From: Thermoproteota archaeon | Lineage (GTDB): Archaea > Korarchaeota > Korarchaeia > Korarchaeales > Korarchaeaceae | Direction of reading: 5' to 3' | Length of the DNA: 64,000 bases | Assembly (NCBI GenBank): GCA_027491735.1 | Contig: JAOZGP010000023.1 | Location: 42,656 to 106,655, forward strand | In this document: positions 8,599-64,000 of the stretch, one piece after another | How the letters are laid out: every line of letters begins with the position of its first letter | How positions within the stretch are numbered: the stretch's first letter is position 1 | The notes under the pieces: model-generated | The model's database searches: none | Told to the model about the DNA's origin: nothing | What the model saw: the letters and a program-made list of their open reading frames with translations, nothing else | Program-made: the position numbers and the translations under genes

Positions 8599-10620
8599 AT
8601 GGGAGGGGACGTCCTTCTGCATGGAGACGTTTATGCCTGCCTTGATCATCTGGAGGATGATTCGATCGCCGTGGCTGTGACCTCCCCGCCCTACTGGAGA
8701 CAGAGGAATTACAGATTTGAGGGACAGATCGGACAGGAGAAGACGCCTGAGGAGTACATCGGTCGGTTGGTGAAGGTATACAGCAAGCTTCGCCGGAAGC
8801 TCAGAAGGGATGGCGTCTTCTTCCTCAACATCGGAGATAAATACCTGAATCGATATGGTAAGTCTCATCTCCTGCAGATCCCGTACAGAGTGGCACATCA
8901 CATGGTGAGGGATGGTTGGCGCCTAGAAGATATAATTATATGGTATAAACCGAACCACATGCCCTCCCCGGTCAGGGACAGGTTCACGAACACGTACGAG
9001 CCCGTGCTGGTTCTGACGAGGGGCGAGAGTAACATATACAAGAATGGATATCCGAGGGTGGTGGAGATACCTCTGCAGCGGACCCCGTGGAGACACACAG
9101 CGGTGTACCCCGAAGGTCTGGTGGTGGAGATGCTGAAACGTGTGAAGTTGGAGGACGGAGATATAGTACTGGATCCCTTCGCAGGAACTGGGACCACTGC
9201 TGTGGCTGTGAACAGGGTGAGGAACAGCCCTTACGCCAAGGAGATCTACACGATAATGATCGAGAAGGGGGATGAGTTCGTGGACGTGATCAGGGAGAGG
9301 GCTAAAGTAAGGGCGGTCGTTCGGGTCGAGGACGTCGATTACGAATGGCAGCCCGTTGAGGAGGAGAACCTTCCGGAATGCTTGAGGCCTACCCCGATGC
9401 TGAGGGACAGGTACGGAGAGACGTATATCGCTCGAGATCAGGAGGAGTTTCTATCCGCGTTGAAGGGGATCGCACTCAGAGAGTTCAAGGAGTTTCACAG
9501 GGAGGACGCGCTCTACTTCCTCGGGGTGAGGAGATGGGGTCTGGACTCATTATATTACGTTCACGTCATATATAGATATGGATATGTTCTGAGGAACATG
9601 TTGGTGATATCCGATGGGAACAGCTGGTATCCTGTCTTCATGTTCGCACGGGATAGCACGAGGGTGGCGTACAGGTTCCACCTCGATAGGGTTAGGGTGA
9701 AGCCTAGGACGATGGAGAGGAGGGAATGGATGGAGGAGGAGTTCATCGGCATGAGGGTGAGGGACACCTCAGGGAGGACATCTATTGAGGGTCGTGTGGT
9801 GAAGATCCTGGAGAAATATGCTGATGGTTTTCCAAAGCTGGTGGTGGTTCAATGGGGCAAAAAGGCGTCTGTGGAACTTGCCATTCATCCCGAGAAGGAT
9901 GAGCTCCTGATGGAGGGCGTGAAGTTCCTTTGTCCGAGGTGTTATTCCGAGTTGAAGGAGCCCTACGATCCGATAGGAGAAAACTCATGCCCTTCCTGCG
10001 GGCAGAGGTTGTGGACGAGCTTGGAGACGGTCCCCGTGGTGCAGGAACCTCGAGAGATATCCGAGGTTGTGAGGAAACTGGAGGATAACAAACACCACAT
10101 GGGTCAGATTTTTAATATTAAGGAATTTGAAATAAAGAAAATTTCATCATCAAGTAAGTTTTCCTCCTTGGAAAGGATCAACTGGGGGGCATCTCCCGGA
10201 GCGAGGAAGCTCATGCTCGGCGAATACTTCACAAAGATGCGCCTTTACAGAGTGAATCAACCTCTCGTCGCACAATATTTGATCTTACTGAGGAGGTCCA
10301 GGAACATGAGCATTCAGGACGTGGTAAGGAGGCTTCCGAGGAGGTATCGTCACACAGTTGGTCATTGGTTCAGAAAGGACTTCGGCGGATCTATCCCAAT
10401 ACCCGAGGATATTGAAGTGATAGAGGAGATCCTCGGTGCTCGGGGCGGCCTGCTCAGGATTCTGAGGAGGACGGCCTTAAAACTTCAAACGGTCAGAGCA
10501 TCGATCAAAGGTAAGAATCCGGGGGATTACATCAGGGGCAGAAGCGATGAGGAGCTGGTGAGGTTCCTCAGACTGTTGTATGCTCCATCACAGGGGAGCG
10601 CGTCGCGGTCGATGAGGTGA
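8599..10620 (+). CDS. Beta-class N4-C/N6-A DNA methyltransferase with a long C-terminal extension (degenerate second MTase-like region, Zn ribbon, HTH)
   Basis: Catalytic TSPPY precedes SAM-binding LDPFAGTGT. The C-terminal part has CPRC..CPSC, an HTH-like LRRSRNMSIQDVVRRL..TVGHW, and KGKNPGD. Confidence 0.85.
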   Translation: MGGDVLLHGDVYACLDHLEDDSIAVAVTSPPYWRQRNYRFEGQIGQEKTPEEYIGRLVKVYSKLRRKLRRDGVFFLNIGDKYLNRYGKSHLLQIPYRVAHHMVRDGWRLEDIIIWYKPNHMPSPVRDRFTNTYEPVLVLTRGESNIYKNGYPRVVEIPLQRTPWRHTAVYPEGLVVEMLKRVKLEDGDIVLDPFAGTGTTAVAVNRVRNSPYAKEIYTIMIEKGDEFVDVIRERAKVRAVVRVEDVDYEWQPVEEENLPECLRPTPMLRDRYGETYIARDQEEFLSALKGIALREFKEFHREDALYFLGVRRWGLDSLYYVHVIYRYGYVLRNMLVISDGNSWYPVFMFARDSTRVAYRFHLDRVRVKPRTMERREWMEEEFIGMRVRDTSGRTSIEGRVVKILEKYADGFPKLVVVQWGKKASVELAIHPEKDELLMEGVKFLCPRCYSELKEPYDPIGENSCPSCGQRLWTSLETVPVVQEPREISEVVRKLEDNKHHMGQIFNIKEFEIKKISSSSKFSSLERINWGASPGARKLMLGEYFTKMRLYRVNQPLVAQYLILLRRSRNMSIQDVVRRLPRRYRHTVGHWFRKDFGGSIPIPEDIEVIEEILGARGGLLRILRRTALKLQTVRASIKGKNPGDYIRGRSDEELVRFLRLLYAPSQGSASRSMR

Positions 10621-10629
10621 GGGGATCGC

Positions 10630-10881
10630 GTGTGGAGGGAGGAGTGTGTAAACAGGGAAGCAGATGTAGGGCTGGGCATCAGGTGGGCAGCAGCACAGTA
10701 CGGCCTGAACTTCATTCACGTGAGGTGGGAAAGCTTCGACTTCGTAATACCAAAGTATAGATATGGTGAAGAACCCGTAAGGAGGTTCCTGGAAACTCTT
10801 AGATCGAGTGAGTTCAAGGATCAGCTGAGCAGACTGCCGGGATACAGGATCCCCGAGAACCTCGGAAGACGCATACTTTAG
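10630..10881 (+). pseudogene. C-terminal remnant of a PBP-like (MoeA/ModE-associated) substrate-binding domain protein
   Basis: ADVGLGIRWAAAQYGLNFI..WESFDFVI..FLETLRS..LPGY matches the end of PBP_like domains. The N-terminus is missing. Confidence 0.65.
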
Positions 10882-11179
10882 GATTCCTCGCTGCCTGTGC
10901 TGTGGAGTGGCGTTCTCATCGGAAGGCAGGGTATTCGAGGAAGGGCCTCTCAGAGGAAGTGAGAACAAGCGCACGCTGAGCAAGGCTTCATTCGATGTGC
11001 TCCCCAATCTTCAGCACGCGAGCTGAAGGTGGATAGCGTCTCTCTAGGTCCGTGACCAGCTAAGAACCTTTTTCTTGGACTGGGCAGAGCATGTTGTCGT
11101 GCGAGAGACATCAAACGCATATCTCATTGCTTCGATGACTTCCGCTGCTGGAGGGAAATGTTTTGTGGGGACAGCGACC

Positions 11180-60619: not shown

Positions 60620-62324
60620 GCAGGAACCTCCCTGACTCTCCCCTCACCTTCTGAACAACGAGAACGTGGACGTCATCAGGGATGTCGCTCGGTGGGACCG
60701 GTGTTATCACGAGGTACTGGATCCCGCTTCTGGCGAGCTCTAATATGGACCTGAAGATGACCCCCCTGTTCCTGAGATCCATATGAGTATCGAACTCATC
60801 AACAGCTCTGAAGGGAGATTCCATGCAGCTCTGGAGTGCCAGGAAGAAGGACATGACGGCTGATGTTCTCTCTCCACCACTATGAGAGAGAGGATCTAGA
60901 GGGGAGAGATCCGAGCCAGAGAAGCTTATGAGGAGCTCTATCCCGGCCTTCTCGGGATCCTTGAGGTTGATAATCCTCACCTCGCCATCGCCGCCCATCC
61001 TGGACAGGATCTCCCTGTACATAGGATTCACAGTCTCTAGGAGAGAGGTGAGCTTCTCCCTCCAGATGATCATCCTATCCTCGATCTCCTTCACAAGTCT
61101 TCTCTTGTTTCTTTGAACCTCCTCGGCCCTCTTTCTAAGCCTCTCGTAGATCTCCCTGTACTTGGAGCAGGCTTCATCGGTGTTTCTTGGAATCCTCCCG
61201 ATTCCTGCCAGAGATATCTCGACTCTCCTCATCTCCTCCTCTATCTCATCTGGATTCCTCCCCCTGAACAGTCTCCCCCCAAGCTTCTCGGCCTCAGAGG
61301 CTAACTCCTTTATTCTCCTTCTAGCCCTCCTGACCTCCTCCTTCAACCTCCCAAGCTCATCTCTCTTGATCTCGATGAGGACCTTGGAGACCTTCACCTC
61401 ACCGATCTTGTCGGCTGCCGACTCCCACAGGTTCCTGAGCCTCAGAAGACCTTCCTTCAGCCCAATCCTCCTGTCGAGCATCCCGGCCTCAACCTCTCCT
61501 ATGCTCTCCTCAAGATCCTTTACATCGGAGGAGAGGTTGTTCATCCTCTCCTCAAGGTTCTTAAGCTCGCTCTCGAGCCCTTCAGTTTCCTTGACGATCT
61601 TGGAGAGTTTCTTCTCCTTCTCGAAAACCCTGGTCCATGCCAGTTCCCTTCTAAGGTTAGATAACTTCTCCTCAAGCTTCCTCTTCTTTTTAAGCTTGTT
61701 AGACATCTCAGTCCAGTAGTTTAATGTCTCCTCCGCCTTTGAGAGGAGAGTCTCCACCTCTCTCTCCTCAGCCTCGACCCTCAGAAGTGTTTCCCTTGCT
61801 CTCAAAATCCTCTTCCTATATGAGGAGAGGCCAACGGCCCCCTCAACAACCTTCAGCTTATCCTGAGGTGAGAGAACGGAGAACTCCTCCATCATGTTCT
61901 GATGCATTATTATCAATGGATTGTCCGGATCGAGACATAACTTTGAGAGCATCCTCCTTACAGAGGACTTCGTCATCGTCCTCCCGTTGACCTCATGCCA
62001 GTACTGCCCGTCTGACCTTATGTATCTGCTTATAAACACCTCGTCGCCCCTCACCGAGGGTATGGGTCTGGATCCCCTGCCCCTCGGTCTGTTGTCCAGG
62101 ACCACCGTCGCCCTGGCGTACCTCTCTCCCTTCCTTATCAGATCGCTGAGCCTTCTCCCCCTCTCTGTGTACGTTTGGCCGAGAGCGACAGATATTCCCA
62201 GAAGTATCGATGATTTTCCAGACCCGTTTGGTCCAGTTATCAGGTTCACTCCGCCCTCCAGCGGTATTCTGGCATACCTGTACGACATGAAGTTCTCGAG
62301 GATTACCTCCTTCACAAGGGGCAC
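60606..62324 (-). CDS. Short SMC-like ATPase (archaea-specific, Smc5/6-like motifs)
   Basis: LENFMSY, GPNGSGKSS, Q-loop MHQ, coiled coil, HSGGE, PFRAVDEFDTHMD, QYLVITP. Confidence 0.88.
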   Translation of the reverse strand: MPLVKEVILENFMSYRYARIPLEGGVNLITGPNGSGKSSILLGISVALGQTYTERGRRLSDLIRKGERYARATVVLDNRPRGRGSRPIPSVRGDEVFISRYIRSDGQYWHEVNGRTMTKSSVRRMLSKLCLDPDNPLIIMHQNMMEEFSVLSPQDKLKVVEGAVGLSSYRKRILRARETLLRVEAEEREVETLLSKAEETLNYWTEMSNKLKKKRKLEEKLSNLRRELAWTRVFEKEKKLSKIVKETEGLESELKNLEERMNNLSSDVKDLEESIGEVEAGMLDRRIGLKEGLLRLRNLWESAADKIGEVKVSKVLIEIKRDELGRLKEEVRRARRRIKELASEAEKLGGRLFRGRNPDEIEEEMRRVEISLAGIGRIPRNTDEACSKYREIYERLRKRAEEVQRNKRRLVKEIEDRMIIWREKLTSLLETVNPMYREILSRMGGDGEVRIINLKDPEKAGIELLISFSGSDLSPLDPLSHSGGERTSAVMSFFLALQSCMESPFRAVDEFDTHMDLRNRGVIFRSILELARSGIQYLVITPVPPSDIPDDVHVLVVQKVRGESGRFLLEEA

Positions 62325-62382
62325 AGTGATTCATCTAGCTCCATGAAGATAAACCTATATCTCCTCGAAGGACCTAAACGTT

Positions 62383-63065
62383 ATGCCCTTCTCGGCCAAG
62401 CTCTTCGAGCCGGATCTACCGGTTCTCGAGGTAGTCAGGAGGTTGAGGGGGCTTAGGACAGAGAAAATTGTTGATGTGGACGGAAAGGATGTTGAAGTCG
62501 GACTCAGGGTGAAGGAGCTTGAGAAGAAGGATGGGGTTCTGAGAGGGTCATAGAGGAGAGCTTCCTCATATCCGTTAATTGTAGGGGAGAGGAGGGTTCC
62601 TACATCGGTTCCGGTTGAGTTCGAGTTATTTTCAACAGGAAGGCAGGAACTTCCTGGTGATAGAGGCCAAGAAGATGAGGACCTGTAAGGTAGCTTCTTG
62701 GATCTCAGCAGCGATATCGGCGAGCAAGGATGCCGTCTATGAGGCTAGAATAGATCCCGAAGTCCTGAGGAGCTTCTTTAAGAAAAGGATTGAGACCGTT
62801 AGAGTGGCGTTCTTCGATGAGGTCAGGCTCCCAAACGTCAACAAGCTCTCCCTTTACGGAAGGGAGCTCGTGAACACCGACATCTACAGGGGATATCTCA
62901 AGGTTGGCAGAGTGCGGTATGTCGTCTTTGAGCCGGAGGAGGGGGCTTGTCATTGGGCTGACAAGGGACTGCGTGATCACTTTCTTCTCAAAAATGGATG
63001 AGGAGAAGTGCTTTAAGTTCATCAGGGAGAAGGTGATCCCATTGACGATGAGGTCCCAGGAATGA
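62383..63065 (+). pseudogene. Multiply frameshifted hypothetical gene divergent from the SMC-like operon
   Basis: Coherent fragments MPFSAKLFE.., FFDEVRLPNVNKLSLYG..YLKVG..YVVF and LVIGLTRDCVITFFSK lie in different frames. Confidence 0.6.
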
Positions 63066-63433
63066 TCGAGGATCTCTGTGCGAACCATACCCAACTGCGA
63101 ACCTTGAGAGATCTTGCTTAGTGGTCAAAAACCCTCCACAGAAACTTATGGAGGAGGAGTGAGTTAAAAGGACCTGTCACTGCTTTGATCGTTGTAAGCT
63201 TCTGCTTCGCCTTATCCTGAGGATTTCGAACTTCTCGCTTTCAGCACCAGTTTTCAACATCGACTTCATTTTGAAATTTATGAAGATCCACTGCAAGAAG
63301 ACAACGGCTTTCAGGCAGCGAGAAGGCTGTAGAAGAGGTTTTTCCTTTACATGAAGCATGCTTCATGCATTGTCCCAGGAACTTCGAGGTTCATCTCCAT
63401 TCAGCATGTTATCCCTCCTCAGTCGGACAGCAT

Positions 63434-63616
63434 CCGTTCTTGTTCTCCGCTACATTCGAAGCTTTTGACACTGGCGGAAAACCTTCCCTCCTCAGGATTC
63501 ATTAGGGGGCTTTCTGGGGAACAGGGACTCCCCACATCTTCAGTTTTCTTAGCTCCGCCCTTTCGGGCTTCCCTTCCCTCTCCTCTCACCACCCATCCCA
63601 CATCTCGAGCGGAGCT
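63434..63616 (-). ncRNA. Orphan TnpB omega-RNA-like structured element, copy 2, with its own TATA box
   Basis: Homologous to 6011-6172. Contains AAGATGTGGGGAG..TTCCCCAGAAAGCCCCC..ATGA..CTGAGGAGGGAAGG and ends AGAACGG. TTTATAAA at 63640-63647. Confidence 0.65.
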
Positions 63617-63708
63617 TGTTCATCGTTGAACCATTCACCTTTATAAATTTGGATATCACAAAAATCTTCATATGTTACGAATACAACATTATATGTTTCT
63701 GCCCCACC

Positions 63709-63740
63709 TGTAGACATAGATGTAAACATTGATGTTTACA
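63709..63740. promoter_or_regulatory. Triple operator-like array TGTAGACA-N4-TGTAAACA-N4-TGTTTACA
   Basis: Same unit and spacing as 52939-52970. Confidence 0.55.
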
Positions 63741-64000
63741 ACAGAAATAGGGTTTGTGCTGGAGGCTGAGGATCCACTGCATCAGAGGAAGATGGGTGGT
63801 GGGTTCGACTGAGGGCCAAATGCAGCAGCTGGTCAGGACGTAAGGCAAGGAAAGCCATCGATCGGTTGAAGAAGGGCAGGGGATATTTAAATATTTCAAA
63901 ACTACATCCTTTTGTACTTAAGAACAGCGAGCGTGAGGTCGCCGCCTGCGGCCGATGGGCGCCGCTCCAATCCCTGCGGGGAATGACCCGGATGGGAGCC

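Follow-up and report, generated by a model that had tools for sequence, protein, structure and literature searches.

A gene-less 269-nt element with a TnpB omega-RNA scaffold in an archaeal genome, probably derived from an IS607-family transposon

The window analysed here, a 64,000-nt stretch of contig C40 in an archaeal metagenome-assembled genome (MAG, labelled G000), contains a 269-nt element at positions 63702-63434; this and all other element coordinates are given on the minus strand. The element is very probably a non-autonomous, gene-less derivative of the IS607 family, whose members carry a serine-recombinase gene, tnpA, together with tnpB. It is an ordinary kind of mobile-element derivative, with no newly invented RNA, and a repeat family of about 30 copies in an uncultured archaeon is now assigned to a defined tnpA-tnpB parent of IS607 type. 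The computed basis for this reading consists of part-by-part homology to a complete parent, copy number, covariation in four helices, a GG/TGGG junction, and flanks that are unrelated among copies. A preliminary description of the locus had proposed a domesticated, trans-acting guide RNA with an added 5' domain. That proposal was partly right, in that it recognized TnpB guide-RNA sequence and a possible promoter of its own, and wrong on both domestication and the added domain.

The parent was reached through a second genome, G027. There, a 361-aa tnpB, itself preceded by the 3' end of a resolvase-type gene, has the 3' part of the family (profile positions 139-260) immediately at its end. Retrieval with this TnpB yielded 60 related loci in archaeal MAGs, and the right-end part of the family follows tnpB in approximately 40 of them. 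One locus, L038, from a MAG labelled Bathyarchaeia, is a complete element of 1,848 nt comprising left end, tnpA, tnpB, and right end. Its 204-aa TnpA contains HTH_17 (HTH_17/MerR, 3.8e-12) and Resolvase (1.7e-27) domains, and its 402-aa TnpB matches PF07282 (1.6e-20). An HTH-plus-Resolvase tnpA followed by tnpB defines the parent as a member of the IS607 family, and the same gene order is found in loci L022 and L049 and on contig C8 of G000. Three regions of L038 match the family profile, namely, the left end ahead of tnpA, the part of tnpB that encodes the zinc ribbon, and the sequence following tnpB. In nhmmer alignments, family positions 1-46 and 1-54 map approximately 60 nt upstream of tnpA in L038 and L041, and in the parent loci positions from ~114-147 to 260 overlap the tnpB 3' end or come immediately after it. 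The L038 left end, which follows a 5' flank ending in GGGG, begins GCAGAAACATATAATGTTGCATTCGTA... and is nearly identical to that of the gene-less element over the first ~35 nt of the latter. The left ends of L038, L040, and L045 match the element from GCAGAAAC onward, and those of L040, L045, L041, L042, and a remnant on contig C36 of G000 are all of the same type. At the other extremity, the L038 right end reads ...GTAGCGGAGAGTCAGAACGG and closes in CAGAACGG. By family profile and by reading of the sequence, the element thus shares both its left and its right end with a full-length IS607-type element. TnpB proteins with 75-79% amino acid identity to the G027 protein occur in MAGs labelled Bathyarchaeia, Archaeoglobaceae, Baldrarchaeum, Undinarchaeota, and Asgardarchaeum (loci L037-L096). 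This wide spread over distant lineages suggests recent horizontal transfer of the IS607 lineage among thermophilic archaea, many of whose MAGs contain the tnpA-tnpB parent.

Each segment of the element can be placed on this parent. The interval 63702-63617 is the parental left end, running from GCAGAAAC to just beyond the remnant start codon of tnpA (ATG, 63634-63632), as judged by nhmmer and by comparison with L038, and the full-length copies in G000, G027, and G028 all conserve it. Module 1 (63616-63551) aligns with 25 tnpB genes as a remnant of the first half of the zinc-ribbon coding region (..SS.CPxCG..SP.G.R..); where the parents read ...TSSLCPxCGxKLSPNGxRL..., the element still reads ...SRCGMGGERRGKGSPKGRS* in one frame. 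Homology to the parents, together with covariation, identifies the remaining segment (63540-63434) as module 2, a remnant of the TnpB C-terminal tail (LKMWGVPVP...), and the right end with its terminal CAAGAACGG. The derivation of module 2 from the tnpB C terminus had been proposed previously and is supported: the frame LKMWGVPVPQKAP is present and matches real TnpB C termini (...RLRGLKMWGVSFPPKAHR in L039 and ...RLRALKMWGVSVPP... in L049, the two types whose tails agree best with module 2). Intact TnpBs either end at ...RLRGLKMWGVSFPPKAHR*, as in L039, or run on into ...RLRALKMWGVSVPPESPPM..., as in L049. In the element, a run of C is one base shorter and the reading frame breaks there, which is why tblastn aligns the next stretch (PESPLMNPEEGRFSAS) in another frame; residues 352-388 of L038 TnpB match the element with an E value of 0.001.

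Two internal deletions account for the difference from the parent. The first, of ~1.5 kb, begins shortly after the tnpA start and reaches the zinc ribbon. The second removes ~65-75 nt between modules 1 and 2, with loss of the second CxxC pair and the RuvC-III region; its junction falls at 63550-63541 and is deduced from the spacing of helices S1 and S2 (described below) in L038, L039, and L041 versus gene-less copies. The short spacer is common to G000, G027, and G028, and, because the full-length copies of all three genomes share both deletions, the gene-less architecture appears to have arisen once and then spread. A tnpB remnant in a Methanothermococcus sp. record (L080, 3135-3272) also shows S1, a short spacer, and then S2. 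Given this resemblance to the second deletion, the S1-S2 stretch may have been lost more than once.

These assignments do not support a 5' domain added beyond a simple insertion-sequence remnant, as module 1 is a zinc-ribbon coding stretch of tnpB and everything 5' of it comes from the parental left end. The element essentially matches the structural part of what had been set beforehand as speaking against the preliminary reading, namely, an internally deleted element with its left end joined to its right end. The tandem motif on which the two-module view was based is real, with AGATGTGGG at 63605-63597 and 63539-63531 (five matches in the window against 0.66 expected, a count reached in 0 of 100 shuffles) and second parts CCCGAAAG at 63567-63560 and CCAGAAAG at 63517-63510. 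The ATGTGGG...CCCGAAAG words occur at both sites within intact parents as well. A tandem duplication of module 2 as the origin of module 1 was considered and dropped, the zinc ribbon and the C-terminal tail being different parts of tnpB.

Four helices are retained in the element. S1 closes module 1 by pairing of AGCTCCGCTC (63616-63607) with GGGCGGAGCT (63560-63551), an interaction of 10 pairs, including one G-U, that had been noted previously and is present as described; a GCCC-GAAA-GGGC hairpin (63568-63557) overlaps it and could compete with it. The helix already exists within intact tnpB genes, in which the S-L-C-P codons pair with G-x-R-L codons ~30 nt downstream, and paired changes are seen in these codons (for example, CCTCTGCCC/GGGCAGAGG, CCCTGTGCCC/GGGCACAGGG, and CCTATGCCC/GGGCATAGG). 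In an alignment of the S1 region from 25 tnpB genes and nine gene-less copies (A3; 11 column pairs), 88.7% of cells are paired, compared with 27-48% with the partner strand slid out of register by 1-3 columns. Changes affecting both partners occur at seven of the 11 pairs, amounting to 55 such cells versus 24.5 ± 3.6 in shuffled alignments (0 of 500 reach this value). A second alignment, A2, covers the S2-S4 region in 42 sequences, with S2 (four pairs; 63533-63515 in the element), S3 (six pairs; 63509-63504 with 63491-63486), and S4 (11 pairs; 63481-63471 with 63453-63443) defined on the L038 row. Here, 87.6% of cells are paired (34-55% in slid controls), 16 of 21 pairs are compensatory, and 104 cells are changed on both sides versus 37.3 ± 7 after shuffling (0 of 500). 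RNAalifold alone recovers S3 and S4, with 10 of 12 pairs compensatory. Because the sequences are related, the shuffle control overstates significance; the slid controls preserve relatedness and still give far lower pairing. Alignments A3 and A2 replaced an attempt with MAFFT and RNAalifold on whole gene-less scaffolds (A1, 13 sequences), which aligned poorly and returned only fragments of S1 and S4.

The copy in the window keeps 10 of 11 column pairs in S1, three of four in S2, five of six in S3, and nine of 11 in S4. As all four helices covary across both parents and gene-less copies, module 1 is part of the native omega-RNA scaffold. By sequence comparison, then, the element carries the scaffold of a TnpB omega-RNA, which covers the 3' end of tnpB, extends no further than the right end, and gives way to a variable flank; the earlier proposal of a TnpB guide-RNA identity is borne out in this respect. 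The location of S1 inside zinc-ribbon codons, and its covariation there, make it a clear case of RNA structure constraining coding sequence. Rfam returned no matches for the whole window at the gathering threshold, and at E values up to 10 the interval 63300-64000 gave only chance-level matches to long noncoding and small nucleolar RNAs (E of 0.4 or worse).

The element is one member of a dispersed repeat family. Searches of the assembly (1,356,880 bases in 41 contigs) with BLAST and with nhmmer in three rounds identified 33 nhmmer matches in this 1.36 Mb MAG, nine of which span the start of the 261-position profile to position 254 or beyond. The near-complete copies are the one on C40 described here, one each on C7, C21, C16, C19, and C17, two on C27, and a ninth that combines the end of C7 with the start of C38; the remaining matches are 3' parts or fragments. 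Many copies are located at contig ends, as expected for repeats, which tend to break assemblies. In full-length copies, conservation begins at GCAGAAAC (63702) and takes in the TATA-like box discussed below. It therefore reaches ~85 nt further upstream than the conserved 5' end that had been placed ~25 nt after that box, an error that arose because the comparison was made with copy 1 (window 6187-6010, minus strand), itself 5'-truncated. Copy 1, which sits between convergent genes, starts ~20 nt before S1 and is without left end or TATA box (nhmmer family positions 71-260, E of 3e-30). At the 3' side, every copy ends in ...CAGAA(C/T)(G/A)G. Family similarity stops at 63434, in agreement with the scaffold end proposed at ...AGAACGG, and the downstream flanks of 23 copies are mutually unrelated.

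Outside G000, full-length copies of the same architecture are found in G027 and G028, which belong to the same class and another family, at 72-74% identity. DNA matches occur in six of 40 genomes of the class, G000 included, with full-length copies only in these three. No family match was found in three genomes of the same genus, and two of 35 searched genomes of the same family gave a match, partial in both cases. The element can be called MITE-like (after miniature inverted-repeat transposable elements) only in reference to its small size and absence of genes. It has no terminal inverted repeats, no duplicated flank was seen, and its ends, GCAGAAAC... and ...CAGAACGG, are in the same orientation.

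A 212-nt sister subfamily, which has a rearranged module 1 and no TATA-like box, is represented by near-identical copies at at least three different flanks. Its sites in G000 are C19:24605-24815, C17:2340-2129, C41:7200-7315, C20:29348-29463, C39:7171-7043, and C34:1-127 (contig ends). The near identity of these copies points to recent transposition and, hence, to an active transposase source that is unseen in the assembly.

The left junction of this copy reads ...CAGGTGGG/GCAGAAAC and the right junction ...AACGG/ATGCTG, with TGGG on the left and GG on the right. The TGGG that abuts the left end (63706-63703), read directly, matches the motif expected for an IS607 target or transposon-adjacent motif (TAM). 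According to the relevant parts of a preprint on these elements (10.1101/2023.11.20.567912), the IS607 serine recombinase, TnpA_S, integrates at a strict GG with a preference for 5'-TGGG-3', equal to the predicted TAM. The arrangement fits the IS607/TAM model in that an excised donor site would read TGGG followed by the guide-matching sequence. The 3' flank, ATGCTGTCCGACTGAGGAGG (63433-63414), would act as a guide if an RNA were made and is otherwise ordinary flanking DNA. Searches for a distant target gave only short matches elsewhere in the genome, none of full length; the best covers 16 nt of a ribosome-binding-site-like stretch on C4. In the virome, two exact 17-mer matches in viral contigs stop at 17 nt and have no adjacent TGGG; one lies inside an IS3-like transposase region. 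Both were rejected as real targets and judged to be chance. The putative guide is simply flanking DNA.

The left end might also supply a promoter. A TATA-like box, TTTATAAA, is present at 63647-63640, 24 nt before S1, at the promoter distance from the first helix that the preliminary description had claimed. In the parents, a box of the form CATTTAA(A/G)TA precedes the tnpA ATG by ~29 nt in all six left ends read, the spacing expected for a leaderless archaeal mRNA, and a second box, TTTTATAAAG, is much closer, at 8 nt from the ATG. Of these, the first is decayed in the gene-less copies, and the second is kept in nine of 15 distinct copies that have a left end. A TTTAT/TTCAT box is found 22-25 nt upstream of S1 in eight of these 15 and at 18 nt in a ninth. 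From this arrangement, the box is a reasonable candidate for an archaeal promoter, with a putative RNA start near 63617, and self-driven transcription is plausible.

A mechanism consistent with these features would operate at two levels. The two deletions would have removed nearly all of tnpA and tnpB while sparing the left end, the omega-RNA part of tnpB (S1 within the zinc-ribbon codons; S2-S4 over the C-terminal tail and right end), and the boundary ...CAGAACGG. At the DNA level, a TnpA_S serine recombinase supplied in trans might excise the element and insert it at (T)GGG sites. At the RNA level, the TATA-like box at 63647-63640 would start transcription near 63617, and the resulting scaffold of ~183 nt would run into the flank, ATGCUGUCC..., as its guide. 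TnpB, also provided in trans, could take up this RNA and cleave the donor site left empty next to TGGG, which would favour retention of the element as in the TnpB homing model. Such a guide-RNA-only selfish element would combine IS607 ends with a shortened four-helix omega-RNA behind a left-end TATA box, would transcribe its own guides to exploit TnpB and TnpA_S made elsewhere, and would have spread as an architecture between distant archaeal lineages; this extended account is offered tentatively. If it is true, the shortened scaffold would be a naturally minimised omega-RNA that can do without the ~65-75 nt between S1 and S2. All helices and the TATA-like box are kept in gene-less copies and the S1-S2 stretch is dropped, a natural hint on how far this guide RNA can be shortened and how it might be expressed on its own. 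A shortened TnpB guide RNA of thermophilic origin may help work on compact RNA-guided nucleases.

Both levels of this mechanism depend on partner proteins, and here, as at several other points, observations weigh against the proposed explanation. No intact tnpB of any family is present in the assembly: the longest open frame among eight PF07282 matches is 119 aa, PF01385 is limited to a single fragment at the end of a contig, and tblastn with L038 TnpB gives fragments only; tnpA of the parent type is represented by one frameshifted copy, on C8. The MAG is 87.85% complete and multicopy elements typically go unassembled, such that absence of tnpA and tnpB is not established by these searches. 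Because no intact tnpB or clearly active tnpA of the family is found in the assembled genome, this diverged copy may be idle now. It is ~70% identical to its relatives, as for an old insertion, and five of 32 helix column pairs are broken in it. Its single-sequence RNA fold is no better than that of shuffled sequences (z = -0.04), and the structural case consequently rests on comparison across copies. The box is absent in six of 15 copies, including the 212-nt subfamily (C19/C17/C41/C20/C39/C34), and its constant spacing from S1 may simply be inherited. A GG immediately before the left end is not universal, with 11 of 18 cases showing it as counted by eye from printed flanks. An empty site was sought with window 62300-63433, which has no DNA match in the three same-genus genomes.

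The divergence, the broken pairs, the missing intact genes, and the fold energy equal to that of shuffles would also suit an inert fossil, that is, a decaying remnant, no longer mobile and yielding no useful RNA, whose conserved features reflect descent only. This account is possible, if doubtful, for the present copy. Against it, the left end, TATA box, four helices, and right-end boundary are all recognisable and mostly pairable, the near-identical copies of the sister subfamily imply recent mobility and a transposase source, and the incompleteness of the MAG weakens the argument from missing genes.

Two further alternatives would give the transcript a role in the host. A small regulatory RNA that acts independently of TnpB, as a co-opted transposon transcript directed at neighbouring or distant mRNAs, would be in keeping with the possible promoter and with the lack of an intact TnpB in the assembly. 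It is very improbable, however, as no conserved target complementarity was found and the conserved parts are exactly the omega-RNA helices of tnpB-linked copies. Domestication as a promoter-driven, trans-acting guide RNA, a host-retained gene that leads TnpB or dead TnpB to a distant target, is in turn highly improbable. The TATA-like box at promoter distance and the preservation of scaffold helices despite lost coding capacity are in its favour, and domesticated TnpB systems with guide RNAs do exist, as described for TldR in the relevant parts of 10.1101/2023.11.30.569447. The 33 nhmmer matches of the family are nevertheless dispersed, each with its own unrelated 3' flank, both ends are those of a mobile parent, and no tnpB or dead-tnpB gene lies beside the copy, with no tnpB-like open reading frame (ORF) near the element. 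The guide likewise has no second genomic match beyond the 16 nt on C4, the viral 17-mers without TGGG look like chance, and the locus is not matched in the three same-genus genomes and only partially in two of 35 from the same family.

An IS200/IS605-type palindrome-associated transposable element (PATE), in which the hairpins would be single-stranded DNA signals for a Y1 (HUH) transposase rather than RNA helices, is hardly tenable: subterminal hairpins without terminal inverted repeats resemble such elements, which are known in archaea (in the parts of PMC3119063 that bear on them), but the complete relatives carry an HTH-plus-Resolvase serine recombinase instead of a Y1 transposase, the junctions read GG/TGGG, S1 lies ~250 nt inside the element within tnpB codons, and the four helices covary as expected for an omega-RNA.

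An IS607-derived element with a TnpB scaffold can be set beside several known systems. IS607 elements as presented in parts of 10.1101/2023.11.20.567912 share with the complete relatives of this element an HTH-plus-Resolvase tnpA followed by tnpB, and with this copy a GG at the junctions and a TGGG-type left flank; they, too, have a guide-RNA scaffold that extends over the tnpB 3' terminus and goes no further than the right end. The present copy differs in being gene-less (269 nt versus 1,848 nt for L038), in its location in an archaeal MAG of Thermoproteota type, and in having no group I intron, as far as the same portions of that source allow comparison. Gene-less IS200/IS605 derivatives, the PATEs, have been described in haloarchaea (Dyall-Smith et al. 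2011, PMC3119063), and, according to the Meers et al. 2023 preprint (PMC10055086), they frequently code for omega-RNAs dependent on a TnpB supplied in trans. In the relevant portions of these sources, PATEs resemble the present family in that internal deletion fuses the two ends, the products are multicopy and non-coding, and some keep part of the tnpB C-terminal region. The parent here is instead IS607, with a serine recombinase, a double-strand circle, and a GG core, whereas PATEs follow the peel-and-paste route of Y1/HUH enzymes. The parents of this family carry no Y1/HUH transposase. Two separate deletions, furthermore, keep four RNA helices here, with a TATA-like box retained immediately ahead of the first.

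The TnpB omega-RNA, or right-end element RNA (reRNA), of OMEGA systems was reportedly described by Karvelis et al. in 2021. The present family has the following in common with it: a structured scaffold covers the 3' end of tnpB and terminates at the boundary of the transposon, with flanking DNA as the guide. The scaffold in this family is ~65-75 nt shorter between S1 and S2, matches no Rfam family, and may be expressed from a left-end promoter, in contrast to excision from tnpB mRNA. Domesticated TnpB systems such as TldR share the TnpB-type guide-RNA scaffold; unlike those treated in the relevant sections of 10.1101/2023.11.30.569447, the family here is dispersed and mobile, with no adjacent tnpB-like gene, fixed locus, or guide-target pair. 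A keyword full-text search of the open-access literature, supplements excluded, found no description of an IS607-derived, gene-less omega-RNA element in archaea.

Other IS607-related sequences occur in the same genome. The C8 locus (~10080-10950; locus L026 1326-2065, minus strand) consists of the frameshifted tnpA and ~40 tnpB codons fused directly to a right-end hairpin, ...CCAGAATGG. This IS607-type deletion derivative abuts ribosomal protein genes, and its left end, unlike that of the element in the window, belongs to another subfamily. The C36 remnant, a left end with 19 tnpA codons, is a further deletion derivative. Also on C36, an intact 214-aa ORF (72216-72758; locus L027 1426-2070, minus strand) with HTH_17/MerR and Resolvase domains is 39% identical to L038 TnpA. 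It is not adjacent to any element end, and its catalytic-serine motif, YxRVSS, reads YVRSRF by eye; the ORF may be a diverged or domesticated relative.

Two features flank the element within the window. A near-perfect palindrome, TGTAAACAT-CA-ATGTTTACA, is located at 63740-63721 (minus strand), ~20 nt upstream of the left end. Further out, the last 127 nt of the window and contig (63874-64000) are 100% identical to C39:1-127, and 116 nt are identical to an internal segment of C32 (43998-44113). This second repeat has no Rfam match (E up to 0.1) and contains no tRNA. It begins at a TTTAAATA box, runs rightward on the plus strand, is GC-rich, and probably caused the contig break.

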